This document shows positions 2,034 through 58,455 of a stretch of 64,000 bases of DNA, piece after piece. A program made the position numbers and the translations under genes. The notes below the pieces were generated by a model, which saw only the letters and a program-made list of their open reading frames with translations, searched no databases and was not told the DNA's origin. Each line of letters starts with the position of its first letter. The first letter of the stretch is position 1. Source of the DNA: a virus. The stretch is taken from positions 1 through 64,000 of IMG/VR virus record IMGVR_UViG_3300031787_000044. One strand, 5' to 3'.

Positions 2034-2035
2034 TA

Positions 2036-2907: not shown

Positions 2908-2921
2908 AATTTAGCATCTCC

Positions 2922-34338: not shown

Positions 34339-35439
34339 ATGGCATTTAAGATAAACGGATCTGATGTTATAGGTGCTGCTAGATCGTATGCCAGTACCGC
34401 AAACGTATCCGTCACAGATTCCATCATCATCGCAAATAACGATTCGTTGGATGCCGTGAGTGGATCGGCTGCCGGATATACTTTCTCGGATGGTACCGTT
34501 GTGATTGGAGAAGACGGTCTAGCGTTAAATGATATTACTCTACGAGATGCTTCGATAGAGGTGACTGGGCCGCTGTTTCAAGGAACGATAAGCGGATATG
34601 CTTCTGGGGGAGGCGACGGTCCCCCGGCGGGTCTCACAATAGAGAAGTTTTCATTTACGTCAGATGGAAATGCCACAGATGTTGGAGACTTAACTGTCCA
34701 AAGAGGATACGCCTCAGGTCAAAGCAGTTCTGTTTCAGGATACACTTCTGGAGGACTCGCCGGCGGTGCTCTCAATACGATCGACAAGTTTCCATTTGCT
34801 TCAAATGCGAATGCCACAGATGTAGGAGACTTAACGCAAGCTAGAAGGAGTATCGGCGGCGGGGGCCAGACTTCTACTGTAAGCGGTTATACTTCAGGAG
34901 GCTTTGTTCCTGCAGCTGTTAATACCATAGATAAATTTCCGTTTGCTGTAAATGCAAACGCCACAGATGTTGGGGACTTAACTGTAGGAAGGTATAACAT
35001 TGCAGGACAATCGAGTACTGAATATGGTTATACCGCCGGTGGATCACCTTCGAATATAATTGACAAGTTTCCATTCGCTGCCGATGGCAATGCTACAGAT
35101 GTAGGCGATTTATCAATAGGAAAATTGGGGCCAGCTGGACAGTCTAGCACCGTGTCTGGCTATACTTCCGGATCATTCCCAGGTAGCAACGTAATAGATA
35201 AATTTCCATTTGCTTCAAATGCTAACGCGACGGACGTGGGTGACCTTAGCCAAGCAAGAGGGTCTAACGCTGGACAGAGTTCTACTACGAATGGTTATAC
35301 TTCTGGCGGGACGTACCAGTTCCTGCCTACTGCGGTCAAAAACACAATAGATAAGTTCCCATTTGCGGCGGATGCTAACGCTACGGACGTAGGTGATCTT
35401 ACGGTTACAAGATCCTCCCCGACAGGACAACAGGTATAA
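34339..35439 (+). CDS. Six-bladed Kelch-like beta-propeller protein, paralogue 2
   Basis: Six TDVGDL repeats after a ~80 aa leader. Ends in TGQQV. Confidence 0.8.
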   Translation: MAFKINGSDVIGAARSYASTANVSVTDSIIIANNDSLDAVSGSAAGYTFSDGTVVIGEDGLALNDITLRDASIEVTGPLFQGTISGYASGGGDGPPAGLTIEKFSFTSDGNATDVGDLTVQRGYASGQSSSVSGYTSGGLAGGALNTIDKFPFASNANATDVGDLTQARRSIGGGGQTSTVSGYTSGGFVPAAVNTIDKFPFAVNANATDVGDLTVGRYNIAGQSSTEYGYTAGGSPSNIIDKFPFAADGNATDVGDLSIGKLGPAGQSSTVSGYTSGSFPGSNVIDKFPFASNANATDVGDLSQARGSNAGQSSTTNGYTSGGTYQFLPTAVKNTIDKFPFAADANATDVGDLTVTRSSPTGQQV

Positions 35440-35442
35440 AAC

Positions 35443-36435
35443 ATGGCAAAAGTAATTACAGAAAATTTCGCGTTTACACAGTATGCTGATGGTATAGAAT
35501 TTAACGGTAAAGCCGTTGCGACTGCGTTTGATGTTCCACCAATATTTCAAGGAACTGTAAGCGGTTACGCAACGGGCGGGAGCTATCCTAGCGGAACAAC
35601 TGCAATTAGAAAATTTTCCTTTGCGTCAAATGGAAATTCTGTAAGTGTAGGCAACTTGACGAACGCCCTGAGTGGAGGTGCAGGACAATCTAGTTCTACA
35701 TCTGGTTATACAACAGGATCCGGCACCGGCTCTATCAATATGATTAATAAGTTTCCATTTTCTGTTGACGCAAACGCAACGGATGTTGGTGATCTTACAC
35801 AATTAAGGGTAAATCCGGCCGGTCAATCGAGTCCCGTATCTGGTTATGGTTATTCGTCTGGCGGCACGGGCGGCTCACCTTATTCAAATGTAATAGATAA
35901 GTTTCCTTTTTCAGCAGACGCCAATGCAACAGATGTAGGAGATCTTACGCAATTAAGAGAGTATCCGGCTGGACAATCTAGTGTTACATCAGGTTATTCT
36001 TCTGGTGGATATTCACCTCCATTTAGAAATACTATAGACAAGTTTCCGTTTGCTTCTGACGCAAACGCAACTGATGTTGGAGACCTTACTGTATCTAGGT
36101 CTAGAGCAGCAGGACAGTCTAGTGATGTGTCAGGATATTCGTCTGGAGGCAGAGAAATTCCTACTCTTCTAAATGTAATAGACAAGTTTCCATTTGCCTC
36201 AAACGCAAACGCAACTGATGTCGGAGATCTTACACAGAGCCGTAACGCGGCTTCAGGTCAATCTAGTACTGTTTCAGGTTATTCGTCTGGAGGCGATGGC
36301 ACCCCGTCCCCCGCCTTTTCAAATGTAATAGATAAGTTTCCTTTTGCCTCAAACGCAAACGCAACTGATGTAGGCGATTTAGCTCAAGGAAATGTAGGTG
36401 GGGTAACTGGACAAACCGCAGGCCAACAGGTATAA
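35443..36435 (+). CDS. Six-bladed Kelch-like beta-propeller protein, paralogue 3
   Basis: Six repeats, the first one divergent. Ends in AGQQV. Confidence 0.8.
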   Translation: MAKVITENFAFTQYADGIEFNGKAVATAFDVPPIFQGTVSGYATGGSYPSGTTAIRKFSFASNGNSVSVGNLTNALSGGAGQSSSTSGYTTGSGTGSINMINKFPFSVDANATDVGDLTQLRVNPAGQSSPVSGYGYSSGGTGGSPYSNVIDKFPFSADANATDVGDLTQLREYPAGQSSVTSGYSSGGYSPPFRNTIDKFPFASDANATDVGDLTVSRSRAAGQSSDVSGYSSGGREIPTLLNVIDKFPFASNANATDVGDLTQSRNAASGQSSTVSGYSSGGDGTPSPAFSNVIDKFPFASNANATDVGDLAQGNVGGVTGQTAGQQV

Positions 36436-36461: not shown

Positions 36462-37427
36462 ATGCCTATTACGTTAAACAAAGACTCGATTAACTTCGGT
36501 AACTACAGCATATCTCTGCATCCTAACGGCATTGAGATCGACGGTAAGTTTAAGTATGCGTCGAGTGATATATACGTGAGACCATTTCAAGGTACGATAA
36601 GTGGATATACTTCTGGCGGAACAATACCACCAAATAATAGTACTAACACAATTGATAAGTTTCCATTCTCGTCCAATGCTAACGCAACTGACGTGGGTGA
36701 TTTGACGCAAGCAAGGCGCGAGAGCGCAGGCCAATCAAGTGCCGAATCTGGTTATACTTCTGGTGGTTATGGATCAGGAAACTCAAACGTAATAGATAAG
36801 TTTCCGTTTGCCGCGAATGGCAACGCAACGGATGTTGGCGATCTTACACAAGCAAGAAATTCGCTTTCCGGAACTTCTAGTTCCGCATCAGGCTATTCAG
36901 CTGGAGGTTTTGGTCCTCTAAATACTGTTGACAAGTTTCCGTTTGCCGCGAATGGCAACGCAACGGATGTTGGCGATCTTACACAATCAAGGTATGGCCC
37001 GGCAGGTCAATCAAGTACATCATCAGGTTATGCGTCTGGTGGTTTTACAACTGCAAACTCTAATGTAATTGATAAGTTTCCTTTTTCTTCTGATGCCAAC
37101 GCGACGGACGTCGGTGATTTGACTCTGGCAAGAAACCTTGTAACTGGTCAATCTAGTTCTGAATCAGGTTATGCGTCTGGAGGAGGAACCTCAAACGTAA
37201 TAGACAAGTTTCCATTTGCATCTAATGCAAACGCAACAGACGTCGGAGATCTTACACAAGCAAGAACTGGATCGGCGGGTCAAAGCTCTACAGAATCTGG
37301 TTACACTTCTGGTGGAAGCCCATTTCTTAACACAATCGACAAGTTTCCATTTGCTGCAAATGCTAACGCAACAGACGTGGGTGATTTAACTCAAGGTAGA
37401 CAATCTTCGGCTGGTCAACAGATATAA
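36462..37427 (+). CDS. Six-bladed Kelch-like beta-propeller protein, paralogue 4
   Basis: Six repeats. Ends in AGQQI. Confidence 0.8.
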   Translation: MPITLNKDSINFGNYSISLHPNGIEIDGKFKYASSDIYVRPFQGTISGYTSGGTIPPNNSTNTIDKFPFSSNANATDVGDLTQARRESAGQSSAESGYTSGGYGSGNSNVIDKFPFAANGNATDVGDLTQARNSLSGTSSSASGYSAGGFGPLNTVDKFPFAANGNATDVGDLTQSRYGPAGQSSTSSGYASGGFTTANSNVIDKFPFSSDANATDVGDLTLARNLVTGQSSSESGYASGGGTSNVIDKFPFASNANATDVGDLTQARTGSAGQSSTESGYTSGGSPFLNTIDKFPFAANANATDVGDLTQGRQSSAGQQI

Positions 37428-37430
37428 ATA
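37423..37430 (+). promoter_or_regulatory. Late promoter overlapping the stop codon of paralogue 4, upstream of the sulfotransferase
   Basis: ATA TAA ATA contains TATAAATA. Confidence 0.75.
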
Positions 37431-37457: not shown

Positions 37458-38285
37458 ATGAAACAATTGAATTTTTGCGCAGGTCTTCCAAGAACCGGAT
37501 CGACCGTGCTTATGAATATCCTACAACAGAACCCAGAAATCTTTACAACCGCCACGGATCCCTTTCCTGAGATACTCAGCGAACAGATCCTCATTAAATC
37601 TCGTTATCGAGAATCCTTTCAGGCAATGAGCTGCGAACAAGCAGACGATGCCGTTTACGGAATGGCGATTGGTGCTACGAAGGGTTGGTACGAAGGACTC
37701 ACAAAGAAACCAGTCGTGATCTCAAAGTCAAGAACTTGGTCGAACCTTCATCATCTCTTTCCAAACAACAAGATACTCGTCACAGTAAGAGACCTTCGAG
37801 ACATCGTCGAGAGTTTTGATCGTGTCAACGATAAGATTAAAGCCCTTCATACCTTCGGTGATGGTAACATTCTCTACGGCTCTATGACTGAGACCGAGAA
37901 GTATCACTATCACTTTAAAGAATCAAACGCGTTTTCAGGCAATCTGAGACACGAGATACTCAAGTACATTGAACTCTTTAAGACCAATCCGGAAAGAGTT
38001 AAGTTTGTTCGATACGAGGATCTGCTTAAGGAACCAGTCTACATGCTTCGAAGAATATACGACTTCTTAGGTCTTGAATACTTTGAGCACGATTTGAACA
38101 ACATAGAGCAGTCTGCATTATTCGAACACGACAACGCGTACTTTCGTGAGAAGACGGATCATCATACGAAGCCTTCTCTTCTACCTTGGAAGGAACCAAA
38201 GAGAGTACTCTCAGAAAGTTTTCACGAAAAAGTCGTGAGCGAAAACACCTGGTTCTATAAATCCTTTTATCCTGACGCGATATAA
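37458..38285 (+). CDS. PAPS-dependent sulfotransferase family protein
   Basis: 5'-PSB loop GLPRTGSTVL, 3'-PB VRDLRDIVES, and VRYEDLLKEP..LRRIYDFLG. Confidence 0.88.
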   Translation: MKQLNFCAGLPRTGSTVLMNILQQNPEIFTTATDPFPEILSEQILIKSRYRESFQAMSCEQADDAVYGMAIGATKGWYEGLTKKPVVISKSRTWSNLHHLFPNNKILVTVRDLRDIVESFDRVNDKIKALHTFGDGNILYGSMTETEKYHYHFKESNAFSGNLRHEILKYIELFKTNPERVKFVRYEDLLKEPVYMLRRIYDFLGLEYFEHDLNNIEQSALFEHDNAYFREKTDHHTKPSLLPWKEPKRVLSESFHEKVVSENTWFYKSFYPDAI

Positions 38286-38288
38286 ATA
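38281..38288 (+). promoter_or_regulatory. Late promoter overlapping the sulfotransferase stop codon
   Basis: TATAAATA followed by a GGAG RBS before 38316. Confidence 0.75.
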
Positions 38289-38315
38289 ATACTATATGAT
38301 GATACGGAGTACATT

Positions 38316-38873
38316 ATGAACGAACACGCGACTAACATTTTTAATGTTCCAATATGGGGATACGTTCTTACGAACGAAAAGTATCAAGCAGAAGATTATC
38401 TCGACAGAGTTCTAGAACTATACGCTCAGGAACCGTCGGTATCAAAGAGTAACTCGGGCGGTGCCTGGCAGTCGAGAGACGATCTTCACGAGGATCCGAT
38501 CTTTCGAGAGTTTGTAAAAAACATTCTACTCAAATCGATCGCATCAAACATTCTCAAGGACTACGGCATCACCGAGTTCAAGCTACAGAGCATGTGGGCA
38601 AACGTAAACGGTAAGCACTCTTTCAATCACCATCACACGCACGAGGGTTATCTCTCGGGTGTATTCTATCTTAGAGTACCGCAGAACTCTGGTCGTCTCG
38701 TATTTACGAACCCAGCCATTCGCAGCGAGAGACATCCAATTCGTGATAAGAACTATCCAATTCAACCACAACCTCTTGCGTGTATTGTCTTTCCGAGTTG
38801 GCTCGAACACTATGTCGAACCAAATCAGTCGGACGATACGAGAGTAAGTATCAGCTTTAACATAGGTGTTTGA
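38316..38873 (+). CDS. 2OG-Fe(II) oxygenase (TIGR02466-like)
   Basis: SNSGGAWQS, WANVN..FNHHHTH..LSGVFY, FPSWLEHYVEPN and RVSISFN. Confidence 0.88.
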   Translation: MNEHATNIFNVPIWGYVLTNEKYQAEDYLDRVLELYAQEPSVSKSNSGGAWQSRDDLHEDPIFREFVKNILLKSIASNILKDYGITEFKLQSMWANVNGKHSFNHHHTHEGYLSGVFYLRVPQNSGRLVFTNPAIRSERHPIRDKNYPIQPQPLACIVFPSWLEHYVEPNQSDDTRVSISFNIGV

Positions 38874-38875
38874 TT

Positions 38876-39448
38876 ATGAACCATAAAAAGTTACACATTA
38901 ACGGCCGTGAAGTAGATATCTATGACGATCTGTTTACGTTTGAAGAGATCTCAAAGATGTTCATCGCGGTTCGTAATTTTCCCTACACAGCTACTAATTT
39001 TAGCGACGGGTTTAGATCGCACATCTACGGCGAAAAGCACAAGCTCAAGTACGTGTTTGGATCGCGTGAAGAAGCAACTAACTTTGGCATTATAAATAGA
39101 CTCAATCAGGTCAATCCACATTTTGCTAAGAATTATATCGTTCACCGACAATATGTAAATCTTGCTACGACGAGCGACTTCGATACGATTCACATAGACG
39201 ACAATCATCTAGAAAAGCCTAAGACGGCGCTATACTATCCTCACCCGGATTGGAACATTCATTGGGGAGGTCATACATTCTTCTTCAACGAAAAGTTGGA
39301 TAGTATAGAATACACAGCAGCGTATAAACCTGGAAGGCTTGTCATCTTTGATGGTTCGATACCTCACTGTGGTTCGCCGCCATACGCATCTGCTCAAGAT
39401 AAAAGATACGTTGTGACCTGCAAGTTTCAATATACGAATGGAGAATAA
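38876..39448 (+). CDS. 2OG-Fe(II) oxygenase (prolyl-hydroxylase-like)
   Basis: HxD (IHID), WNIHWGGHTFF, PGRLVIFDGSIPH and the R in KRYVVTCK. Confidence 0.85.
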   Translation: MNHKKLHINGREVDIYDDLFTFEEISKMFIAVRNFPYTATNFSDGFRSHIYGEKHKLKYVFGSREEATNFGIINRLNQVNPHFAKNYIVHRQYVNLATTSDFDTIHIDDNHLEKPKTALYYPHPDWNIHWGGHTFFFNEKLDSIEYTAAYKPGRLVIFDGSIPHCGSPPYASAQDKRYVVTCKFQYTNGE

Positions 39449-39451
39449 ATT

Positions 39452-46657: not shown

Positions 46658-48280
46658 GTGGCTACAATAAAGCACAAAAGATCTAGTGAACCAGGTAGAG
46701 TTCCTACGCTAAATCAACTCGAGTTTGGTGAACTTGCGATCAATACCTATGACGGTAATATCTACACCAAGATAGAGCGCGAAGGTGTAGCTGAAATAGT
46801 AAAGTACACCTCGACAAATCCAGTCGAAAACGTGTACTATGTTCAAAAGAACGGAAGCGACGCGAATAATGTAACTGGTACGACTTGGGATGACGCATTT
46901 CTTACGGTAGAAAGAGCTATTGAAGCTGCTAACGAAAGAGACGGAGCTTTAACTCTCATTGACGTTGGTCCAGGCGAGTACATAACTCAAGGTCATATCG
47001 ACGTTCCTGATAACTGCTTACTACGCACCGTTCACAGGGCTGCTATTTTTAAGCCAGCATCAGGATACGAAGAAAGAAACGTTCTCAGATTAGGATCTGG
47101 CTGTTTCATTGAAGGATTCGTCTTTGAAGGTTGGAGACTCAACAGCCTCGACAACCCAACTGAAGGATTTGCAGTATCATTTAGACCAGGTGCGGTCATT
47201 CGTAGAGCTCCATACGTCCATAAGTGCGTGGTTAGAACCACACCTTTCTGGGATACTGTAGCACCACCGTTGGATAGAGATAACGCTAACCCGCTCGTTG
47301 GAAGAGGAGCTGGAGTTATCCTAGCTGACGGTTCGGTTTGTTCTCAGTACAGCATATATCCAAACATCATGGCATGGGGTGCAACACCAGTTTCTCACAA
47401 CGGTATTGGATACTGTGCTAAAAATGGCGCGCTAATTAACGCGGTAAACGCGATTAGTCTCTGGGCTCATAAACATTTTCTCGCTCTTGCTGGCGGACAG
47501 ATCATTCTGTCTGCGTGCTCCACGCAGTTTGGTGATTATACGATGGTCGCAAGCGGAACTAGAAATATTGTAGTTCCAACTGAAGTAGCTGATGGAACTC
47601 TATCGATACAGACCGCTGCGTATCAAGCTATCGACGCTTCGGCTAATACTATCATTGATGCGATGTGGACAGATCTACAGTCAAACGGGTACACTACTGG
47701 GTGGAACGCAGAAGATGAAGTATTTACAAGAAGAGACGCGAGAAACGTTCTTCAATCTGTAGAGTGGGTTCTACAAACAGCAAACGAAAAGCCTATGCTC
47801 GACTTTGCTAAAGGATTATTTACAACAACTGGAACGAAAGCATATTCTATCGATAAAGAACCAGCATTCATACGTTCGTTTCAGTTCATGAGAGATGCAA
47901 TCATCGCACTTCCTAATGTGAATTCTACTGCGGATGGTATTGTTTCAGCATTGTTCGCAGCATTAATTAATACGATTCAAAATACCGTTACAATCGCAGA
48001 ACCTTCTACGATTACTGCGATAGGTCATACGTGGTCTGCTCTTATGTCCGGTGTTGCTTTGACTAAGATACCACCAGCAAGAAACGCAACTACGATAGAA
48101 GAAAGCATATTAGAATTAAATAACGGTCAAGTTATTGCATCGGGGCAAGACGACCAGGGTTCAGCATTGTTCGTTGGAGGAATGAGAATCGACGCAGACA
48201 CTGGAGAGCTATCGGGCCCGCCATTCGATCAAGCAGTAAATAGAATTGCCACAAGAGCAGCAATCGCAAGGAGTTTTTAA
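46658..48280 (+). CDS. Virion fibre/appendage protein, module B subunit 1
   Basis: N-terminal IKHKRSS..VP...LEFGELAINTYDG fibre motif. Core paralogous to 24064 (LGSGC, FRPGA.I.R.PYV, VGRG.G.ILAD, GATP..NG.GY.AKNGA, TQFGD). Confidence 0.65.
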   Translation: MATIKHKRSSEPGRVPTLNQLEFGELAINTYDGNIYTKIEREGVAEIVKYTSTNPVENVYYVQKNGSDANNVTGTTWDDAFLTVERAIEAANERDGALTLIDVGPGEYITQGHIDVPDNCLLRTVHRAAIFKPASGYEERNVLRLGSGCFIEGFVFEGWRLNSLDNPTEGFAVSFRPGAVIRRAPYVHKCVVRTTPFWDTVAPPLDRDNANPLVGRGAGVILADGSVCSQYSIYPNIMAWGATPVSHNGIGYCAKNGALINAVNAISLWAHKHFLALAGGQIILSACSTQFGDYTMVASGTRNIVVPTEVADGTLSIQTAAYQAIDASANTIIDAMWTDLQSNGYTTGWNAEDEVFTRRDARNVLQSVEWVLQTANEKPMLDFAKGLFTTTGTKAYSIDKEPAFIRSFQFMRDAIIALPNVNSTADGIVSALFAALINTIQNTVTIAEPSTITAIGHTWSALMSGVALTKIPPARNATTIEESILELNNGQVIASGQDDQGSALFVGGMRIDADTGELSGPPFDQAVNRIATRAAIARSF

Positions 48281-48283
48281 ATA

Positions 48284-48748
48284 ATGGCACGCATTACATG
48301 TAGAACACCGTCTACAGGAAAACCATTAAGAATTATTCAGAGTAACGTATCAAATACGTATATAACGATAGCCGAAGCACCCGACTTTTCAGTTCCAGAC
48401 GCTTCGAGTAAGTTTCCTGACCGCGACCCAACGAATGCAACACGAGCAATACGCCCAGGAGAAATATTTTTCTTAACGCCAATGGCCGCAAAAAATAAAG
48501 ACACCGAGGACAGATGGATCGAAACCATTCTTGTCACCGAGGATGACGAAACAATAGAAGTTGCAACGGTTACGGTTCCAGCTGGTGATACCGCTCTTAT
48601 TCCACTACAAGGTAGAAGCCTACTTAAAAGGACGGCAAACAACTCATCTGGTGATACACTGCAGATAAGAGCAGAGATCTCAGGCGTATTCGATATATGG
48701 ATATCTGCAGAAGAAAAACTATCAAACGAACACGTTGGGGTTGAATAA
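48284..48748 (+). CDS. Small beta-rich structural protein, module B subunit 2
   Basis: Paralogue of 27192..27614. Confidence 0.6.
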
Positions 48749-48750
48749 AA

Positions 48751-50733
48751 ATGGTAAAATTAGTATCCGATTATACCGTATCTAATAGGATAGTAAAAAC
48801 TCCTTCTACTGAAGTGTCTCCTGAAAGATATAGGTACGTTAATTTAGCTGAAACGGAGCCGGATCTTGGTGTTCCTCAGGCAAACGGATATATTCTTACA
48901 TCGAATACTATTGGAACCAGAGCTTGGATAGACGGTTCTACAATATTTGGGCAACAGGGTATTCAGGGTATACAGGGTATTCAAGGAAGCTTTGGTCAGC
49001 AAGGTATACAAGGTCTTCAGGGTACAAAGGGAGATCCATTTAAGGTTCTTGGATCCGTTCCTGACGTAAATGTGAATCCACCAAACAATCCTCAGACTAC
49101 ATTAAGCGCGGCCTTTCCAAGTCCATCTCTTGCAGATGGTGTTATTGATGAGGCGACATTTGATCTTTGGGTTTGGAATGGTACATCTTGGATAAACACA
49201 GGAGATATCGTTGGACCTCAGGGTATTCAAGGTATTCAGGGTCGTCAAGGTATCACCGGATCTCAAGGTGTACAAGGTATTCAGGGATCTCAGGGTGATC
49301 AGGGTATTCAAGGTACTACTGGTGACCAAGGTATTCAAGGTACTGGAGGACTCGGTACACAGGGTGTTCAGGGTATCACTGGATCTCAAGGTGTTCAGGG
49401 TATTACCGGCGAACAAGGTATACAAGGCACTCAAGGTGCTCAGGGCACTACTGGTGAACAAGGTATACAAGGTATTAGTGGTACTGGGAACCAAGGGCCA
49501 CAGGGCACTCAAGGCACTACTGGTGAACAGGGTATACAAGGTGTTCAGGGCGTCCAGGGTATTCAGGGTACTTCAATCCAGGGTATCCAGGGTATCGCTG
49601 GATCTCAAGGCGTTCAAGGTATCCAAGGTATAGACGGTACACTAGGATCTCAAGGCGAGCAGGGTATCCAGGGTATTCAGGGTATCACTGGTTCGCAAGG
49701 TATACAAGGTATTCAGGGTACTGCTATTCAGGGCATTCAAGGTATCCAGGGTATCACTGGATCTCAAGGCGTTCAAGGTATCCAAGGTATAGACGGTACA
49801 CTAGGATCTCAAGGCGAGCAGGGTATCCAGGGTATCACCGGATCTCAAGGTGTACAAGGTATCCAAGGTATAGACGGTACACTAGGATCTCAAGGTGTTC
49901 AAGGTATCCAAGGTATAGACGGTACACTAGGATCTCAAGGCGTTCAAGGTATTCAGGGTATTCAGGGTACTGCTATTCAAGGTATTCAGGGTATCCAGGG
50001 TATCACTGGATCTCAAGGTGTTCAAGGTATTCAAGGTATAGACGGTACGCTTGGTTCTCAAGGCATTCAAGGTATCCAGGGTATCACTGGATCTCAAGGC
50101 GAGCAGGGTATCCAGGGTATCACTGGATCTCAAGGCGTTCAAGGCATTCAAGGTATCCAGGGTATCACTGGATCTCAAGGTGTTCAAGGTATTCAAGGAA
50201 CCCAAGGTATCCAAGGTATTCAAGGTATTCAGGGTCGTCAAGGTATCACCGGATCTCAAGGCGTTCAAGGTATTCAAGGTATTCAAGGGCCGGCGTCTGC
50301 TTCTGCTTCAGCAACAGATCTTCAAGCAACAAATAATACTTCTACGAACGCAAGCTTCTACCCAGTCTTCGTTGCAAACGTTGGATCTGTTCAAACAGTC
50401 AATGCTGCCGATACAAAACTTTATTTCAATCCAAGTACCGGAACACTCAACGCGACAAACTTTAACTCTCTATCAGACATTACTTATAAAGAAAATATCG
50501 AAAAGATACCAAACAGTATAGAGATGCTAAATGCAATACAGACATATTCGTTCAACTGGAAAGATAATAAGAACAAGAGCTACGGGGTAATCGCGCAAGA
50601 GTTAGAAAAGGTTATGCCAGAACTCGTAGAAAAAAACGCTAACGGCGATAAGACAGTTTCTTATATGCCTTTGATCGCAATCGTTATTGAAGCAATAAAG
50701 AAGTTAGATGATAAGATCGAAGGTAAAATATAA
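48751..50733 (+). CDS. Collagen-like fibre protein (Gly-X-Gln) with C-terminal S74 chaperone, module B
   Basis: GXQ tracts, with a C-terminus highly similar to the 27604 protein ([58 protein letters not shown]). Confidence 0.88.
48952..50290 (+). repeat. 9-bp-periodic collagen-coding repeat tract
   Basis: CAR GGT RTY units with higher-order repeats such as GGTATAGACGGTACACTAGGATCTCAAGG (GIDGTLGSQ). Confidence 0.9.
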
Positions 50734-50864
50734 TGGCGCTTAACTTTTCAACATCTCAGAGTTTAGATCTAATACACCACCAAGATGGCACGTCCTATGA
50801 GTGGACCGGTTCAAAGTGGCGTAGAATCGATACTTTTGAAACGCGATATACAGACAAGCTCTGA
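50733..50864 (+). pseudogene. Truncated paralogue (43 aa) of the N-terminus of 30290..31126
   Basis: [31 protein letters not shown]... resembles MAAFDFPTSPTNGQLYALNGRTYQYNAAKQRW. It sits in the same syntenic slot and is coupled by TAATG. Confidence 0.55.
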
Positions 50865-50937
50865 GAGACGTTACAACTCAAGATGGATTTTCTTACACTG
50901 TTACTTGGCCTACGAAACCTTAACACTGTTCTAAACG

Positions 50938-50945
50938 TATAAATA
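50938..50945 (+). promoter_or_regulatory. T4-type late promoter heading the glyco-enzyme operon
   Basis: TATAAATA, then a GAGGTG RBS before 50992. Confidence 0.78.
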
Positions 50946-50991
50946 ATATTAAGAAAGATGATGATAATTTGAAGTGAGGTGAAACTATATA

Positions 50992-52062
50992 ATGTCTTTT
51001 TTTGAAAACACCAAGAACGGAACAGAAGTAGAAAATATATACAATTACGAAAACGATCGTAGTTTTGCAAAAACAGTACTAGAGGATGGTGGAGACATAC
51101 ATCCTCTTATAATTCCATCAAATCTTACGAATGGTACAGGGTTGATGAATCCGTCTATATTGAATATAGACGGCAAACTCATTGTCAACATTCGTCACGT
51201 GAACTATACGTTCTATCACTCAGAGAGAAAACTATTTCAGCACCCTTGGGGTCCTCTTACTTATCTGCATCCTGAAAACGATATGCATTTAAGAACTGAA
51301 AACTATTACTGCGAACTAAACGATTCCTTTGAGATCTCTCGGTTTAATAAGATAGACACAAGTAAGTTTGACACATACTCACCTATGTGGGACTTCGTTG
51401 GTCTTGAGGATGCTCGTCTAATGCATTGGAATGGTAAGATCTTTACTTCTGGAGTTCGTAGAGATACGACGACGAACGGCCAGGGTAGAATGGAACTCTG
51501 TGAGATAGAAGTTCGTAACGACTCAGTAGTAGAAGTAGCGCGCTGGAGAATTCATCCACCGAAGGATAGAAATTCTTATTGCGAAAAGAACTGGATGCCG
51601 GTTCTAGATCAACCTTACACATACGTAAAGTGGTGTAACCCAGTTGAGATCGTAAAGGTTGACGAAACGCCGTTGGACGATAAAGTATTCGAGTCAAATT
51701 GGGTAGACTCAAAAACGATCCACCTCGGAGAACGTTTAAACTTTTCTCACAAGGATCCACGCGGTGGATCGCAACTCATACCTTTCGGAGATAACTATCT
51801 CGCGCTTACTCACGAGGTCGATCTATTTAAGAGCGAAGTTGGTAGAAAGGATGGGGTGTATCGTCATAGATTCGTTCTGTTCGATAAAGATTGGAACGTG
51901 CTAAAATCTTCAAAAGACTTTTCATTAATGAATGGACATACGGAATTTGCATGCGGTATGTGCCACTATAAAGATAAGATACTTATTACATTTGGATTTC
52001 AGGACAATGCTGCGTACATACTCGAAGTAAATCCTAAATCTATTGAAGACCTATTACTGTGA
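50992..52062 (+). CDS. Five-bladed propeller glycosidase/phosphorylase-like protein (GH130/GH43-like)
   Basis: NPSI, GLEDARL, EKNWMP, RGGSQL and EFACG motifs. Confidence 0.65.
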   Translation: MSFFENTKNGTEVENIYNYENDRSFAKTVLEDGGDIHPLIIPSNLTNGTGLMNPSILNIDGKLIVNIRHVNYTFYHSERKLFQHPWGPLTYLHPENDMHLRTENYYCELNDSFEISRFNKIDTSKFDTYSPMWDFVGLEDARLMHWNGKIFTSGVRRDTTTNGQGRMELCEIEVRNDSVVEVARWRIHPPKDRNSYCEKNWMPVLDQPYTYVKWCNPVEIVKVDETPLDDKVFESNWVDSKTIHLGERLNFSHKDPRGGSQLIPFGDNYLALTHEVDLFKSEVGRKDGVYRHRFVLFDKDWNVLKSSKDFSLMNGHTEFACGMCHYKDKILITFGFQDNAAYILEVNPKSIEDLLL

Positions 52063-52077
52063 GAGGACGCATACATT

Positions 52078-53931
52078 ATGAACAGAACTGAAATTATTCA
52101 AACTCTCATCGATAAGATAGATGCGAAGAGCTATCTTGAAATTGGAATTTCCGCTGGAGACAACTGGAAAAAGATACGCTGCGATCGCAAGTTGAGCGTA
52201 GATCCAGAACCTCTATCAAAGGCAGATCGCGTTCTTACTTCAGACGAGTTCTTTGAAAAGAACGAAGAAACGTTTGACGTCATATTCATAGACGGCCTTC
52301 ATCACGCGGATCAAGTACACAGAGACATAAAGAACTCGCTAGATGTGTTAAACGATGGCGGTTACATCGTATGTCACGATTTAAATCCACAGAAGAAGGA
52401 ACATCAGGTCATACCGTTTACTGGCGGTACTTGGAACGGAGACTGTTGGAGATCCTTCGTAAGCTTGCGTCGAGATCGAGAAGATCTAGAAATGTTTACT
52501 ATTGACACCGACCACGGATGTGGCGTTATACGTAAGGGTACTCAAGAAACGTTGGATATACATCCTAGCACCGACGTAACATATGAAGACTTTGATAAGA
52601 ATCGTAAAGAATGGTTAAACCTAATTAGCCCAGGTCAATTTAGAAAGATGTTTGGTATGAAAGATCTCAAGTCTATGATTAAGACATACATCATGGATCC
52701 TAGCAATCCCGAGAATAACTGGGACCTTGCTCTACACTACGATGGTCTAGGACAGACAGCATCAGCAGTTTCATTCTATATTCGCACGGCCGAAAGAACG
52801 AAAGACGATCTGCTAAAGTACGAGTGTTTAATTCGCGCGGCAATGTGTTTTGAAAAGCAAGGGACGCGCAGGTTTACCGTGAAGGGTATCATACAGCACG
52901 CGATCGCAACGAAGCCGCATCGCCCAGAAGGGTACTACCTCCTGAGCCGTTTACACGAAAACGATCCTGGAGATGGAAAGTGGTTCGATTCGTTTACGAT
53001 GGCCTCTATCGGCTATTCATTTGCCGATGGCGAACTCGAACCTCTTAGAACTGAGATAGACTATCCTGGAAAATACGCGCTTCTTTTCCAAAAAGCTCAT
53101 TCTGCATGGTGGTGTGGCCTCGGCGAAGATTCAAGAAGTATTCTAATGGATCTATATCAAAACTATGATCTAAATGAATACTATCGCAATGCAGTATACC
53201 AAAATCTCCTAAGACTCGGTGCGTTTTCTTCTAAGAGTCTTACTCTATACAAGAAAGAGAAACATAAAGATCTTGCAGTTCAATTCGATGGTTCTGAAAA
53301 AATTAGCCAAAATTATTCCGAGGCGTATCAGGATATGTTCGTTCTTACTCTGTTAAAAGGTAAGAGAAACGGATCGTATGTTGAGGTTGGATCTGGCCAC
53401 CCAACTTATGGAAACAACACGTACCTCTTGGAAAAAGACTTTGGCTGGAACGGTGTATCGCTAGATATTAGTGAGGAGTTCGTAGCGGCGCATAATCAAG
53501 AAAGAAAGCATACTTGTGTACTTAAGGACGCAACGACTGTTAACTACGACAAGTTTTTAAACGGTCTTGGATTTGGTAAGGACATAGACTACCTTCAGAT
53601 AGATTGCGATCCTCCTGAGATAAGCTTTAAGGTTCTTCTTTCGATACCATTCGACTCAAGAAGATTTGGTGTCATTACGTTTGAACACGATCACTACGCG
53701 GATCCAACCGGTGGATATAGAGAGAAGGCTAGAAAATACTTAGAGTCATACGGCTACGTTTTGTTCGCGAGTAATATTTCTCCAGATGAAGATAGACCAT
53801 ATGAAGATTGGTTCGTTCACCCAGATATGATAAATATTAATGAATTTAGTATTCTAATGGATCAAACTGATTCTACGAAAAAAGCTGAAGATTATATAAT
53901 GGGTAAGATCAAGAATGGTGAAGCAGCTTAA
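52078..53931 (+). CDS. Methyltransferase - TPR - FkbM-like methyltransferase fusion
   Basis: N-terminal SYLEIG, DVIFIDGLH and GGYIVCHD. Central helical TPR-like region (P.RPEGYYLLS). C-terminal YSEAYQDMFV, GSYVEVGS..GNNTYLLEK..WNG, IDYLQIDCD and ITFEHD. Confidence 0.8.
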   Translation: MNRTEIIQTLIDKIDAKSYLEIGISAGDNWKKIRCDRKLSVDPEPLSKADRVLTSDEFFEKNEETFDVIFIDGLHHADQVHRDIKNSLDVLNDGGYIVCHDLNPQKKEHQVIPFTGGTWNGDCWRSFVSLRRDREDLEMFTIDTDHGCGVIRKGTQETLDIHPSTDVTYEDFDKNRKEWLNLISPGQFRKMFGMKDLKSMIKTYIMDPSNPENNWDLALHYDGLGQTASAVSFYIRTAERTKDDLLKYECLIRAAMCFEKQGTRRFTVKGIIQHAIATKPHRPEGYYLLSRLHENDPGDGKWFDSFTMASIGYSFADGELEPLRTEIDYPGKYALLFQKAHSAWWCGLGEDSRSILMDLYQNYDLNEYYRNAVYQNLLRLGAFSSKSLTLYKKEKHKDLAVQFDGSEKISQNYSEAYQDMFVLTLLKGKRNGSYVEVGSGHPTYGNNTYLLEKDFGWNGVSLDISEEFVAAHNQERKHTCVLKDATTVNYDKFLNGLGFGKDIDYLQIDCDPPEISFKVLLSIPFDSRRFGVITFEHDHYADPTGGYREKARKYLESYGYVLFASNISPDEDRPYEDWFVHPDMININEFSILMDQTDSTKKAEDYIMGKIKNGEAA

Positions 53932-55474
53932 TAACTTTCCTACTGTATACTACCTTTCTCTAAAGGATTCAACAGGTAGACAGCGCGACATTGAGTCTCA
54001 GCTCTGTGCGCGCGGCGTAAACTTTCGTATGATAGAAGGATACGACGGCAGAAGAGTTGATATTCGCGATCAGCTAAACATATCTGGGCCGCACATAGGA
54101 TCGAACCAAATTACGTCTGAAGTTCTTTCCGTTGCAGTATCTCACATAAATATGATACGCCAATGGTATAAAGACACAGACGAAGAGATTGGATTCTTTT
54201 GTGAGGACGATATCAATTTTTCTCTCGTTGATTATTGGAATTTTAACTTTCAAGATTTTATCTCAGAACTACCATCGGATTGGAAAGTAATTCAGCTATC
54301 TCTCATAAAAGAAACTCCTGTGAATTGGAGTGACATGAGAATGCGAAGAAAGAGATGGAACGATTGGTCGTGCTGTGCTTATATCGTTAATAGAAAGTAT
54401 GCAAAGCAGATAGTAGAAGATTACTATGATGAAGAAAAGAATGAATTCACACTAGACATTAAGGGTACCGTTCATCACCCATTACCAGAAAACGTTGTGT
54501 ATCCCTCAAATTATAAACAGTGTTATGTGTTTCCTTTCTTTACAGAAAACAGAGACCACGTTTCAACTCTTATGAGAGAAACGAATAAAGAAACGATAGA
54601 TAACATTCAGAATCAAAGCAGTAATTTCATAACAAATTGGTGGAAAGAAAATGGCCACAAAGTTAACATAAAGGAGTTAGTAAGTATGATAGATAAAATA
54701 CCAGTGATTGGAGCTCCAGTAGTAAATAGCACGTACTGGATATCCAGACTTATTATGAGTGTTGATTATCCAGTCGAGAACTTCGTCATTATTAATAACA
54801 ACGGGCGCGGAGAGTTGGACGAAGAACTGGACCGTCTTGCGAAAATGAATCACAAGTTCATTGATAACATCAAGGTAGTTCATATGCCAGCAAACATTGG
54901 TTGCGCCGGTGCATGGAACCTTATCATTAAGTGTTACATGTTAGCACCGTACTGGATTATCGCGAACGACGATGTTGCATTTGGTCCTGGCCTCTTAAAA
55001 GAGATGGCAGATAATATAAACTCAGATCCAATGCTTGGTATGATTCATCCAAACGCTGGTGACTTTGGAATCGGCGCGTGGGACTTATTCCTCATTCGCG
55101 AAAACGTAGTAAAGATCTTTGGTCTGTTTGACGAAAACACGTATCCAGCATACTGCGAAGATGCAGACTATATCATGAGAATGCATCATAGACCAATTCG
55201 CAAGATCATTGGTCTAGAGTCTAAGTATATGCATGGCCACGGTGATAGTACGATGTATTATGAAACCGGCAGTCAGACAGAGAAAAATGAAGCTGGTTTG
55301 AAAGTAAAATTGGATCATGCAAACAACCTAAATATAGAGTATCTTAGCAAAAAGTGGGGAGCTGGCTGGAGAAAAATTTCTCCGAATAAGGATCCCTTTG
55401 CAGGACAAGAAACACCAATTTCAATCACAACATATGATCTCGAATTCGTGAGACAGAAACACCTGGGGTTTTGA
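53915..55474 (+). CDS. Glycosyltransferase fusion: GT25-like plus GT2-like
   Basis: N-terminal YYLSL....R, GYDG, SH, FCEDD and AYIVN (GT25). C-terminal VIINN, NIGCAGAWN, IANDD and GLFDENTYPAYCEDADY (GT2/GT-A). Confidence 0.82.
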   Translation: MVKQLNNFPTVYYLSLKDSTGRQRDIESQLCARGVNFRMIEGYDGRRVDIRDQLNISGPHIGSNQITSEVLSVAVSHINMIRQWYKDTDEEIGFFCEDDINFSLVDYWNFNFQDFISELPSDWKVIQLSLIKETPVNWSDMRMRRKRWNDWSCCAYIVNRKYAKQIVEDYYDEEKNEFTLDIKGTVHHPLPENVVYPSNYKQCYVFPFFTENRDHVSTLMRETNKETIDNIQNQSSNFITNWWKENGHKVNIKELVSMIDKIPVIGAPVVNSTYWISRLIMSVDYPVENFVIINNNGRGELDEELDRLAKMNHKFIDNIKVVHMPANIGCAGAWNLIIKCYMLAPYWIIANDDVAFGPGLLKEMADNINSDPMLGMIHPNAGDFGIGAWDLFLIRENVVKIFGLFDENTYPAYCEDADYIMRMHHRPIRKIIGLESKYMHGHGDSTMYYETGSQTEKNEAGLKVKLDHANNLNIEYLSKKWGAGWRKISPNKDPFAGQETPISITTYDLEFVRQKHLGF

Positions 55475-55475
55475 T

Positions 55476-56168
55476 ATGAAGAACTGGATTGTAAATGAAG
55501 AAGAACACGTAGAACAAACCTACGTTCAGGATAAGATTGACGAAGGAAGAATTAGAATAAATCCTTCCTTACAAAAAAACAAGAGAGCATTCGTAATTGA
55601 TAATTTCTATGAGGATCCATATGCAGTGCGAGAATTCGCATTACAGCAAGAATTCTTTGACGATCCTGGATACATAGGAAGAAGAACGCGAACTCAGCAT
55701 CTCTTTCCTGGCCTAAAAGAAACTTTCGAAAGCATAATCGGAGAAAAGATAAGCGAGTGGGAAACCTACGGAATGAACGGAAGGTTTCAGCACAATTGGG
55801 CCGGAGAAAAATTAGTCTATCACTGCGATCAACAGAGATGGGCAGGCATGATTTATCTGTCTCCTGATGCACCACCTGAAACTGGAACAACGATGTATCG
55901 TCACAAAGAGACTAAAATACATCACAACACTCAGATTGATTGGAATTCCGGTCAAGGTATGAAGGTATTCAATCAAAAGACATTCCTTGATAGAACTCCA
56001 TACGAACCGGTTGATGTGTTTGGAAATATATTCAATAGACTCGTGATTTTTGACGGCGGCTGTATTCACGCAGCATCTGAATACTTTGGTAGCGACATTA
56101 ACGATTGCAGACTGTGGCAAATGTTCTTCTTTGACGGAGAAAAATCAAACATTCATCTTGGGAGTTAA
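55476..56168 (+). CDS. 2OG-Fe(II) oxygenase-like protein (DUF6445-like)
   Basis: VIDNFYEDPYAVREFAL, YHCD..WAGMIYL, GTTMY, FNRLVIFDG..IH and RLWQMFFF. Confidence 0.78.
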   Translation: MKNWIVNEEEHVEQTYVQDKIDEGRIRINPSLQKNKRAFVIDNFYEDPYAVREFALQQEFFDDPGYIGRRTRTQHLFPGLKETFESIIGEKISEWETYGMNGRFQHNWAGEKLVYHCDQQRWAGMIYLSPDAPPETGTTMYRHKETKIHHNTQIDWNSGQGMKVFNQKTFLDRTPYEPVDVFGNIFNRLVIFDGGCIHAASEYFGSDINDCRLWQMFFFDGEKSNIHLGS

Positions 56169-56169
56169 A

Positions 56170-56928
56170 ATGAAAATAGTTTTGGTTACTGGTGGTTTTG
56201 ATCCAATTCATTCTGGTCATATCGCATACTTTAAGGAAGCAAAGAAACTTGGAGATATGTTAGTCGTTGGAGTAAACAGCAACGAGTGGCTTACTCGTAA
56301 AAAAGGACAACCCTTTATGGATGTCAACGAGAGAGTAGAGATAGTGAAGAACTTATCCATGGTGGACTCAGTGATCGTGTTTGATGATAGTGATGGAGGG
56401 GCATCTCAGGCGATCTATCACTGCCTTAACGCGTATCCAGACTCGGAAGTTATTTTCGCGAATGGTGGCGATAGAACAAACGATAATATCCCTGAGATGT
56501 CAATCCAAAACGAAAGACTATCCTTTGTGTTCGGCGTTGGTGGTACTCATAAGATGAACTCAAGCAGTAAGATTCTTACAGAGTGGAAGACACCAAAGAC
56601 TGAGAGAAAATGGGGATACTATCGTATCCTCCATTCCGATGGACCTTCTACCAAAGTAAAGGAACTCGTAGTCGAACCAGGAAAGTCTCTTAGTCTACAA
56701 AGACACGAACTTCGTAGTGAGTACTGGATCGTAAGCTATGGTGTAGCAACTGTCAATCATGGAGACAGTATAGAAAACATTCAAACTTCAGTACTTGAAA
56801 AACACGAGGAGATTGATATTCCAGTCGGTACTTGGCATCAACTTGTAAATTACACGAGTGATGAGCTACGTATCGTAGAAGTACAATACGGTAAGAACTG
56901 CATTGAAGAGGATATTGAAAGAATCTAG
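56170..56928 (+). CDS. Cytidylyltransferase-like (HxGH) nucleotidyltransferase fused to a mannose-6-phosphate isomerase type II cupin
   Basis: TGGFDPIHSGH, VVGVNS.EWL.RKKG and FANGGDR, followed by R.WG.Y, LSLQRH..RSEYW, IPVGTWHQL and EVQYG..EEDIER. Start set at ATG 56170 with a GGAG RBS. Confidence 0.88.
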   Translation: MKIVLVTGGFDPIHSGHIAYFKEAKKLGDMLVVGVNSNEWLTRKKGQPFMDVNERVEIVKNLSMVDSVIVFDDSDGGASQAIYHCLNAYPDSEVIFANGGDRTNDNIPEMSIQNERLSFVFGVGGTHKMNSSSKILTEWKTPKTERKWGYYRILHSDGPSTKVKELVVEPGKSLSLQRHELRSEYWIVSYGVATVNHGDSIENIQTSVLEKHEEIDIPVGTWHQLVNYTSDELRIVEVQYGKNCIEEDIERI

Positions 56929-56957: not shown

Positions 56958-56985
56958 ATTATATCAGCGCTACAAGAAATGTCAA
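56958..56985 (-). promoter_or_regulatory. Consensus sigma70-type promoter oriented antisense to the late enzyme operon
   Basis: The minus strand reads TTGACA-N16-TATAAT, with an extended -10 (TGaTATAAT). Confidence 0.6.
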
Positions 56986-57010: not shown

Positions 57011-57018
57011 TATAAATA
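57011..57018 (+). promoter_or_regulatory. T4-type late promoter for the neck genes
   Basis: TATAAATA 24 nt upstream of gp13. Confidence 0.82.
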
Positions 57019-57786: not shown

Positions 57787-58455
57787 ATGTTTATAGAAAA
57801 CAAATATACTAGATGGTATTATTCTATAATCAATAATAGGATGAATAACCCGCACGATAAAGGGTCTTACACTGAAAGGCATCACATAATACCAAAATCG
57901 TTTGGCGGTCCTAATAAAAATGAAAACTTAGTAAGACTCAGCGCAAGAGAACATTTCTTAGTGCACTGGTTATTAACAAAAATGTGCAAATCTTTAGATC
58001 ATAAAATAAAAATGAATCACGCTCTGCTAAGATTAATGAGCGCTTCAGAGTCGTTAGAATTGTACAAATGGTCTAAATGGCAATATGAAATCGCAAAAAA
58101 CAAAAAAACAGTAGCACTTAAAGAAGCAAGAATGAATGGTAAAGATCCGAGATTGGGCAAAAAACATTCTTTAGAAGCAAAAGAAAAAATGAGAAAGGCA
58201 AAACTTGGAGTTAAAAGGGATCCTTCCAAAATAAGCTATCTAAAAGAAAGAAGACACACAGAAGAAACAAAACAAAAAATAAGTGCATCTTTATATGGAA
58301 GATTTTTTTCTGAAGAATCTAGAAAAAAATCTAGTGAAACACAAAAGGGAAAATCGCAAAATAAAACTGTATTAGTTTGTGATAAGTGTGGCCATGAAAA
58401 TTATGCAACACAAATAAAAAGATATCACAATGATAATTGCAGATTGGCAGGATGA
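57787..58455 (+). mobile_element. Free-standing HNH homing endonuclease gene with NUMOD3 repeats
   Basis: YTERHHIIPKSFGG.N..ENLVRLSAREHFLVHWLL HNH motif, NUMOD3-like KHSLEAKEKMRKAK and RHTEETKQKISAS, and a C-terminal CxxC..H...C. Visibly more A-rich than its neighbours. Confidence 0.88.

Follow-up and report, generated by a model that had tools for sequence, protein, structure and literature searches.

That a virus modifies the proteins of its own particle is a known type of system. As reportedly shown by Freeman et al. in 2023, the virions of mycobacteriophages, siphoviruses of Actinobacteria, are glycosylated on their capsid and tail-tube proteins. Among giant viruses, Mimivirus L230 is a lysyl hydroxylase/glucosyltransferase that acts on Lys in G-X-K, chlorovirus A064R is a rhamnosyltransferase-methyltransferase, and 4,6-dehydratases are encoded as well. 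In Bacillus anthracis, BclA is a collagen-like glycoprotein with rml genes. Established examples of virion proteins modified by virus-encoded enzymes come, to our knowledge, from mycobacteriophages and giant viruses and not from T4-like phages of aquatic bacteria. Here we discuss two enzyme cassettes, modules A and B, in the fibre island of a T4-like phage. Its genome is represented by a single 89.6-kb contig (IMG/VR record IMGVR_UViG_3300031787_000044), of which the first 64 kb (positions 1 to 64,000; hereafter the window) were analysed. In our judgement, the chances are even that both cassettes modify the phage's own fibre-associated proteins, i.e., fibres and Kelch-type propellers, in the cytoplasm and late in infection. 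This reading draws on promoter motifs, gene linkage, a phage-only distribution, enzyme solubility, and precedent. The literature searched holds no functional description of the cassettes, their composition, their tie to Kelch propellers, or their abundance in aquatic T4-like phages.

The locus resembles each of these systems in part. As in the mycobacteriophages, whose enzymes act in the cytoplasm on the phages' own virion proteins, a virus-encoded glycosyltransferase gene, here a GT25+GT2 fusion (53915-55474), lies beside structural genes. The families differ, however (GH130-like, FkbM, and GT25+GT2), as do the phages (T4-like) and the presumed targets (fibres), and the present system is known from its genes alone. 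With the giant viruses, the locus shares the combination of viral 2-oxoglutarate (2OG) oxygenase, glycosyltransferases, sugar O-methyltransferase, and 4,6-dehydratase near collagen-like or fibre proteins. This likeness is one of enzyme type, and the collagens of the window carry ~0-1% Pro plus Lys at the Y position of their triplets, in contrast to the Lys acceptors of Mimivirus. Like BclA, the phage encodes a Thr-rich G-X-T filament that is a candidate acceptor of an O-linked, O-methylated glycan with a 6-deoxyhexose, and a 4,6-dehydratase gene lies nearby; the triplets are GIQ, GVQ, GIT, and GSQ rather than GPT, and the RmlB-like enzyme stands alone.

Cyanophage "lipopolysaccharide (LPS)" clusters of the P-SSM2 type are similar in content, with a short-chain dehydrogenase/reductase (SDR) family dehydratase/epimerase, cupin, HIGH nucleotidyltransferase, GT25/GT2, O-methyltransferases, 2OG oxygenases, and a sulfotransferase (PMC7824862; PMC12801897). 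These clusters are polymorphic and lie amid metabolic and replication genes, whereas the window cassettes have a fixed order, lie among fibre genes, bear late-promoter motifs, and are conserved beyond the core genes. For the propellers, the closest precedent is phage CBB, where the Kelch-domain protein CBB_552 was detected in the virion by mass spectrometry (PMC5259590). That protein was seen in the particle, whereas the window propellers, likened to it by domain type, are predicted from gene sequence. As precedents, mycobacteriophage virion glycosylation, giant-virus fibrils, BclA, and the Kelch protein of the CBB virion lend support to virion-protein modification.

Linkage, distribution, and predicted timing of the two cassettes

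The contig derives from a T4-superfamily myovirus; its large terminase shares 58-59% identity with the enzymes of Sinorhizobium phages phiN3 and phiM12. Gene order matches that of phiM12: gp27, gp5, M15 peptidase, gp6, gp7, gp8, the gene for a 1790-aa VrlC-like protein, the island, and gp13-gp18. The interval between the VrlC-like gene and gp13 measures 34.5 kb here (22.6-57 kb) versus ~3.5 kb in phiM12, where it encodes one fibre and one assembly protein, and the gp8-gp13 region is a plastic part of these phage genomes. The contig was detected in freshwater and lake metagenome runs from 14 studies and in none of the public RNA runs, and a megablast search with the whole region gave no match among isolated phages. 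The closest isolate homologues of the enzymes belong to cyanophages (25-57% identity).

Module A (37458-42817) comprises genes for a sulfotransferase, three oxygenase genes including one with two domains (2xOG), and genes for an all-helical protein (H332), a methyltransferase (MT24), and a 110-aa protein (s110). Module B (50992-56928) comprises genes for a GH130-like propeller enzyme, a double methyltransferase, the GT25+GT2 fusion, a DUF6445 protein, and a nucleotidyltransferase-cupin protein. The original prediction, made from the window sequence, had described enzyme genes interleaved with fibre and propeller genes, and our gene calls reproduce this. The sulfotransferase, 2OG-Fe(II) oxygenase, methyltransferase, GT25, GT2, and nucleotidyltransferase-cupin domains that it listed were each recovered in place, including five oxygenase domains in four genes (38316, 38870, 39452 with two domains, and 55476, the DUF6445 gene) and three methyltransferase domains (one at 41713 and two at 52078). 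It had also grouped all of these into one toolkit. A late enzyme set in the fibre island stands, but it is better described as two independent cassettes, because modules A and B keep different partners across related loci.

Related loci were fetched from IMG/VR with three queries: a propeller, H332, and the GH130-like protein. The propeller query gave 66 loci (54 without near-duplicates), which hold 2xOG in 40 cases, H332 in 36, s110 in 30, the sulfotransferase in 22, the first oxygenase of the cassette (Oxy5) in 19, and MT24 in 17; a further tally found s110 in 25 of 32 loci. The gene order of module A recurs among them, with the set embedded in arrays of 2-12 propeller genes on dozens of divergent T4-like contigs. 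Conversely, querying with H332 (n = 35) showed 2xOG adjoining H332 in 30 loci and propellers in 26, most of the others being short contig ends. In its smallest form (L045, L057, and L058), the cassette reads gp13 - propeller - 2xOG - H332 - gp14. For module B, more than 590 stretches matched the GH130-like query; the best 80 loci were kept and the tally covers 79 of them, L070 having been scored with an earlier set. The double methyltransferase gene adjoins the GH130-like gene in 78 of the 79 viral loci and in 12 of 12 "genome" loci, and the two proteins retain 55-68% identity across divergent phages. GT25+GT2 and DUF6445 are each present in 49/79 loci and a homologue of a window fibre gene in 40/79, while module A genes are rare there.

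Named phages show comparable arrangements. Synechococcus phage S-SKS1 carries propeller homologues, an unannotated stretch, two oxygenase genes, and a sulfotransferase gene within 5 kb. In marine virus AG-345-E08, genes for three RCC1-type propellers are interleaved with those for Oxy_3, Oxy_5, a sulfotransferase (34% identity), GT25, and DUF6445; the cluster also encodes a dehydratase, a HIGH nucleotidyltransferase, and a PfkB kinase, and adjoins the gene for a 2005-aa protein. The metagenome-assembled Synechococcus phage DSL-LC02 has GH130-like and FkbM genes between those for a collagen-like protein and a 1787-aa tail fibre.

In a metagenome protein collection, the GH130-like family numbers 5507 homologues; 185,579 species genomes yielded just 12 matches. 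All 12 are contigs of metagenome-assembled genomes from unrelated phyla, with the methyltransferase present and with collagen or T4 neck genes on some; judged by gene content, they are phage DNA binned with cells. Both cassettes are essentially phage-only. Moreover, in relatives with ~41% identity in neck, terminase, and sheath proteins, H332 is 61% identical (above the core in 31/31 loci), the propellers 60%, the sulfotransferase 58%, Oxy5 55%, and 2xOG 53%. Conservation above the core would reflect either strong constraint or exchange of cassettes between phages, and either way the genes travel as units.

Timing is suggested by the motif TATAAATA, which has 19 matches in the window compared with 4.8 expected; none of 100 shuffles reached 19, and 18 of the 19 lie on the + strand. 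Across the whole contig, 17 of 22 + strand copies are found 19-47 nt 5′ of a start codon. At that spacing, the motif precedes gp8, gp13, gp18, and head genes as well as the sulfotransferase gene (37423..37430, 28 nt upstream of the start), the oxygenase operon (38281..38288, 28 nt), s110 (42452..42459, 26 nt), the dehydratase gene (44907..44914, 36 nt), the fibre genes (46026 and 46616), and the GH130-like gene that opens module B (50938..50945, 47 nt); the copy before gp13 (57011..57018) marks the end of the island. The late-promoter motifs placed by the original prediction at 37423, 38281, 44907, and 50938 are borne out, since they lie 28-47 nt 5′ of start codons with the same geometry as at gp8, gp13, and gp18. 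Sigma-70-like sites are not enriched in the region (37 versus 41.7 expected), and no strong one faces the enzyme genes. As to location, all 13 enzyme and accessory proteins lack a hydrophobic segment, the highest Kyte-Doolittle mean over 19 residues being 1.28. Modification would take place before or during assembly.

Module A and the Kelch-type propellers

Four paralogous genes on the + strand (33299-34306, 34339-35439, 35443-36435, and 36462-37427) encode Kelch-type six-bladed propellers, as judged from their repeat structure. They precede the first enzyme gene yet form part of the array of module A, and homologues are found in 66/66 related loci. Two more propeller genes (42951-43928 and 43931-44836, + strand) follow the enzyme genes. 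The AlphaFold2 model of the propeller at 43931-44833 has a predicted local distance difference test (pLDDT) score of 93.3 and a predicted template modelling score of 0.90. Foldseek aligned the 43931 propeller with the Kelch domains of KLHL3, KLHL12, and Keap1 over ~290 residues (template modelling score 0.80-0.84, E ~1e-19, root-mean-square deviation 2-3 Å), and the propeller profile matches KLHL12 (E 0.0035); both results agree with a six-bladed Kelch-type fold. The phage proteins share this fold with the BTB-Kelch adaptors at 15-20% sequence identity, but they have no BTB/BACK region and their blades bear a motif of their own, FPF...NAT-DVGDL...SGYTSGG. The propellers are probably binding heads and would be virion components.

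Two features of the blades bear on possible modification. Pro is present in variable loop 1 of 71% of the window blades and of 84% of those in relatives, and the Pro fraction of this loop is 12-15% compared with 4-5% overall, an about threefold enrichment. Moreover, a near-invariant Tyr is found in every blade, within SGYTSGG. The proposal that Pro-rich propeller loops are candidate acceptors agrees with the measured enrichment.

The blades have further conserved features. All those of the window follow F-[PS]-F-x-x-[D/N]-[A/G]-N-A-T-D-V-G-D-L, and among 287 related propeller open reading frames the N-x-S/T triplet is kept in 836 of ~970 blades, mostly with Asp at -2. The motif is a candidate EF-hand-like Ca2+ loop or a D-x-N-x-T glycosylation sequon. 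Its reading as an N-glycosylation sequon was discarded as evidence, as a Ca2+-binding loop fits equally and no N-glycosyltransferase family was found. In S-SKS1 (L073, NC_020851.1), the unannotated RefSeq gap at 201783-203158 holds a Kelch propeller homologue between the 2OG oxygenase and sulfotransferase genes, one of 12 matching places in that genome.

The sulfotransferase (37458..38285, + strand) matches Pfam Sulfotransfer_3 (E 7.6e-19) and contains the 3′-phosphoadenosine-5′-phosphosulfate (PAPS)-binding motifs GLPRTGST and RDLRD. Among solved structures, the family profile matches TPST1/2 best (E 3e-9) over residues 4-127, the N-terminal, PAPS-binding half. The 5′-phosphosulfate-binding (5′-PSB) and 3′-phosphate-binding (3′-PB) motifs of the TPST structures (PDB 5wri and 3ap1) are also present in the phage protein; the match is limited to this half, the acceptor-binding part falls outside the alignment, and CurM and cytosolic sulfotransferases score closely behind. 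On this basis, the sulfate acceptor may be a protein rather than a glycan. A sulfated, O-methylated glycan, as initially envisaged, is less likely than a sulfated protein or other module A substrate because the enzyme, whose nearest solved relatives are protein-tyrosine sulfotransferases, belongs to the propeller/oxygenase cassette and is absent from the sugar cassette.

Three oxygenase genes follow on the + strand. The first, Oxy5 (38316..38873), belongs to 2OG-FeII_Oxy_5/TIGR02466. The second (38870..39448) is a 2OG-FeII_Oxy_3 protein that resembles the FlmC family (NF052475; E 3e-20, 73 bits, under the cut-off of 240) and is found in just 3/66 propeller loci, all close relatives. The third, 2xOG (39452..40768), has a C-terminal Oxy_3/PKHD domain (E 2.7e-10) that is PKHD/prolyl-4-hydroxylase-like, with a weak match to the B. 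anthracis prolyl 4-hydroxylase (E 0.05). Its N-terminal domain is assigned from an invariant HxD...H motif and PHROG matches; a profile search with this domain against PDB gave nothing significant, the best match being a Tet-like dioxygenase (E 0.44).

H332 (40770..41723, + strand) and s110 (42485..42817, + strand) form the core of module A together with 2xOG. The H332 start was placed with the help of a stop codon in one relative (L104). The alignment of H332 contains 58 invariant columns, and its most conserved stretch is a His/Trp patch, IWNHSHTQWMWKH (residues 76-88), with invariant W, H, W, W, and H. In the AlphaFold2 model (overall pLDDT 70), this patch is the worst-modelled part (pLDDT <50). 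It may bind a metal, a ligand, or a partner. Searching PDB sequences with an H332 profile found nothing significant, and Foldseek comparison with PDB and BFVD returned no hit at E<=0.001; the structural matches from the VIA wide search were generic long helices (Z<=9.1) within the noise for helical models and were set aside. The family has 418 representative proteins and carries no family name, and distant members belong to phrog_1409, for which no function is annotated. MT24 (41713..42456, + strand) is a class I S-adenosylmethionine (SAM) methyltransferase of the Methyltransf_24 family, and s110 matches nothing in Pfam or PHROG.

Module A would be a maturation set for Kelch propellers, consisting of 2xOG, H332, and s110, with the TPST-like sulfotransferase, extra oxygenases, and the methyltransferase added in some phages. 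Most likely, it would hydroxylate the Pro residues that are enriched in the variable loop of each blade; the conserved Tyr, or another hydroxyl, may be sulfated. In its specific form, i.e., a dedicated maturation system for receptor-binding heads in which propeller Pro is hydroxylated and Tyr or another hydroxyl is sulfated by 2xOG and the TPST-like sulfotransferase together with H332, the proposal is tentative and we consider it rather unlikely. If true, propeller modification would tune binding or stability. It would also be the first instance of bacteriophage virion proteins carrying hydroxylated prolines and sulfated tyrosines, and one widespread in aquatic T4-like phages.

Module B and the fibre proteins

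The first gene of module B (50992..52062, + strand) encodes a 356-aa GH130/GH43(DUF377)-like propeller enzyme. The gene for a GH130-like protein is present as described initially, but its score for Pfam GH130 (PF04041) is E 0.008 and 15.5 bits, below the 26-bit cut-off. JGI names homologues GH43/DUF377, and PF04041 is assigned to one of them (P0117). The protein is therefore best called GH130 superfamily-like, a weak assignment. The neighbouring double methyltransferase (52078..53931, + strand) consists of a Methyltransf_24 domain, an unassigned middle region, and an FkbM domain; a tetratricopeptide repeat (TPR) label for the middle region was dropped after Pfam detected none.

The GT25+GT2 fusion (53915..55474, + strand; GT25 E 6.6e-7) has EDD and DD motifs, and its gene sits between the collagen fibre gene and gp13, a position shared by relatives. 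Sequence searches gave no solved relatives for this protein or for the double methyltransferase. The DUF6445 protein (55476..56168, + strand) is 2OG-oxygenase-like, with an HxD...H motif (HCD...H). The last gene (56170..56928, + strand) encodes a HIGH-superfamily nucleotidyltransferase joined to a cupin that resembles the C-terminal domain of type II phosphomannose isomerase (PMI); the correct start codon is ATG at 56170 rather than TTG at 56050. Solved relatives of the nucleotidyltransferase are heptose, glycerol-phosphate, and ethanolamine-phosphate enzymes, and the domain is HldE-domain-II-like.

Between modules A and B lies the gene for a predicted NDP-hexose 4,6-dehydratase (44950..45975, + strand) with STDE and YxxxK (YSASK) motifs, 82% identical to the copy in AG-345-E08. 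Every one of its best-matching solved relatives is an RmlB enzyme (E 3e-53), and it scores 258.9 bits against TIGR01181 (dTDP-glucose 4,6-dehydratase), under the equivalog cut-off of 365.1. The designation RmlB is accordingly relaxed to an RmlB-like dehydratase with catalytic motifs. RmlA, RmlC, and RmlD had no family match in Pfam/NCBIfam scans of the island genes, the cupin at 56170-56928 matching the PMI C-terminal domain and not RmlC. Of the parallel drawn with the rml genes of BclA, the G-X-T repeats hold and the complete rmlACBD pathway does not, a single rml-type enzyme being present. In AG-345-E08 (L006, MH319737.1), a PfkB sugar kinase, a HIGH nucleotidyltransferase, and an RmlB-like dehydratase are encoded in a row (854-3011). 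This row suggests a kinase/nucleotidyltransferase/4,6-dehydratase route to a 6-deoxy sugar, possibly a 6-deoxyheptose.

The fibre module (46063..50733, + strand) encodes a 113-aa tail-fibre-assembly-like protein, a 540-aa fibre, a 154-aa protein to which no function is assigned, and, at 48751-50733, a collagen-like fibre of 660 aa that ends in an S74 chaperone domain. The collagen triplets of the fibres are GIQ, GVQ, GIT, GSQ, and GEQ, with GIT accounting for 26/185 in one fibre and 11/127 in the other. GIT and GSQ, named early on as candidate acceptors, are both present. In the window fibres and 19 relatives, the Y position is occupied by Q in ~65-70% and by T in 14-22% of cases; in relatives, Thr occupies 22% of Y positions and 40% of X positions in the collagens near module B. 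A prolyl-4-hydroxylase-type 2OG oxygenase (2xOG C-terminal domain) and a GT25 enzyme are both encoded, the enzyme types of animal collagen hydroxylation and subsequent galactosylation. Pro and Lys are nearly absent from the triplets, and Pro/Lys chemistry of the animal or Mimivirus type is therefore excluded for these fibres. We propose that fibre proteins, the Thr-rich collagen-like ones or others, would receive a short glycan that module B builds and O-methylates. The constant parts of the module would be the GH130-like enzyme and the double methyltransferase, joined in some phages by GT25+GT2, DUF6445, and the nucleotidyltransferase-cupin, with the 4,6-dehydratase encoded nearby.

Further features were noted around the cassettes. 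The 114-nt gap between the nucleotidyltransferase-cupin gene and gp13 contains a perfect sigma-70 consensus on the minus strand (56958-56985; TTGACA, a 16-nt spacer with TG, and TATAAT), which is directed leftwards and from which an early antisense transcript would run across module B. A 672-aa protein (31126-33144) with a C-terminal Gly_rich_2 domain (E 3e-9) is encoded between the collagen fibres and the first propeller and has few homologues in related loci. A homing-endonuclease-like gene (57787-58455; NUMOD3 motif and weak HNH_5) is inserted between gp13 and gp14, and none of the ~180 related loci compared has a homologue at this site.

Alternative functions and biological implications

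Several observations weigh against modification of the phage's own fibre-associated proteins. Retrieval by exact peptide words inflates the identity of the query family, leaving its neighbours unaffected. In one long H332 locus (L096), the module A trio lies beside a collagen/PKD fibre and an Mtd-like fibre, with no recognisable propeller, and the upstream neighbour of the GH130-like gene is collagen- or fibre-like in just 14/50 loci versus 12% of all open reading frames. In cyanophage S-SCSM1, homologues of the sulfotransferase, oxygenase, and GT25 genes are dispersed between replication and metabolic genes, away from fibre genes. Exchange of whole cassettes may explain the conservation above core genes, and the conserved linkage may reflect a shared insertion hot-spot alone. 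Moreover, distant relatives keep TATAAATA 5′ of the homologues only in a minority of cases, and promoter conservation is therefore unusable as evidence. To these points are added the plasticity of the site and the families and published interpretations discussed below.

GT25, RmlB, and HldE-like nucleotidyltransferases are families best known from LPS synthesis, and the presence here of NDP-sugar enzymes together with LPS-type glycosyltransferases (RmlB-like, HldE-domain-II-like, GT25) suits a role in remodelling of the host surface. In this scenario, the sugar enzymes would alter LPS, O-antigen, or capsule intermediates in the cytoplasm, blocking adsorption of competitors or binding of progeny to debris. 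Similar cyanophage clusters have been interpreted in this way: Iyer et al. 2021 read clusters of epimerase, cupin, PfkB kinase, HIGH nucleotidyltransferase, and glycosyltransferase genes as host-surface modification (PMC7824862), and the S-SCSM2R paper places a GH130-like "MGP" gene among cell-wall modification genes (PMC12801897). The related S-SCSM1 genes lie in metabolic-gene regions. However, superinfection exclusion needs early action, and the enzymes bear late-promoter motifs only. Neither hydrophobic segments nor any membrane-associated, priming, flippase, or polymerase component was found; in the Pfam/NCBIfam scans of the island genes, undecaprenyl-phosphate priming transferase, flippase, polymerase, GtrA/B/C, and acetyltransferase gave no family match. 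Surface-diversifying genes are expected to be sporadic and polymorphic, whereas the cassette is highly conserved, phage-only, and present in both lake and marine phages, as the 78/79 pairing and 55-68% identity of the GH130-like gene and its partner illustrate. The tie of module A to propellers would also be left unexplained, and we regard host-surface remodelling as a minority prospect. The enzymes could otherwise be cargo of a plastic region or act on other intracellular targets such as host proteins, translation factors, or metabolites, with Kelch adaptors recruiting host proteins. The site is indeed plastic, as the ~3.5-kb interval of phiM12, the nearest isolate, indicates next to 34.5 kb here, which also counts against the reading we prefer. 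Multiple 2OG oxygenases with no assigned target are common in marine T4-like phages, also beyond structural regions; PKHD/PiuC-type hydroxylases have no established protein substrate; and the Kelch domains of KLHL proteins and Keap1 are substrate adaptors. We nevertheless find this possibility doubtful: the 2xOG-H332-s110 order beside propellers and the GH130-like/methyltransferase pair persist at ~41% core identity, even when relocated between gp13 and gp14, and all genes are co-oriented with the structural genes and promoter-matched.

An action of the oxygenases, glycosyltransferases, and methyltransferases on bases of the phage DNA is highly improbable. T4 DNA contains glucosylated hydroxymethylcytosine, and phage 2OG oxygenases of the TET/JBP family act together with glycosyltransferases on DNA, a pairing that the present enzyme types recall. 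Some matched families carry the PHROG labels "DNA methyltransferase" and "DNA endonuclease V", and the Tet-like dioxygenase was the best, though non-significant, match of the 2xOG N-terminal domain (E 0.44). Yet the labels are inherited names and no test of function, and the Pfam/NCBIfam scans found no TET/JBP, DNA N6/N4/C5-methylase, or T4 alpha/beta-glucosyltransferase family. The methyltransferases are of the O-methyltransferase types Methyltransf_24 and FkbM, the promoter motifs are of the late class, whereas DNA modification in T4 depends on early/middle genes, and neither the sulfotransferase nor the Kelch linkage would be accounted for. The original prediction had favoured decoration of virion proteins over DNA. 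Phage proteins are indeed favoured, because the genes form late-promoter units in the fibre island, encode soluble enzymes with no DNA-methylase or TET/JBP families among them, and are linked to propellers and fibres in divergent phages; decoration of virion proteins follows from that linkage as an interpretation. We also find it hard to believe that the GH130-like protein cleaves rather than builds a glycan, acting on the host envelope as a fibre-associated depolymerase or in lysis. GH130 and GH43 are hydrolase/phosphorylase families and the gene lies directly 3′ of fibre genes, but the protein is small (356 aa), has no fibre-attachment region, and is paired in 78/79 loci with a double SAM methyltransferase, which would be superfluous for a depolymerase.

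For modification of the phage's own fibre-associated proteins, we infer the targets and chemistry of both cassettes from gene content and context. The cassettes are abundant, with thousands of homologues and hundreds of viral contigs from lake and ocean, and genome papers file such genes as "cell-wall" or "auxiliary metabolic". If fibres and propeller heads are decorated, the view of host recognition and of particle stability in these phages would have to be revised, as would that of the many unexplained 2OG oxygenases of marine phages.

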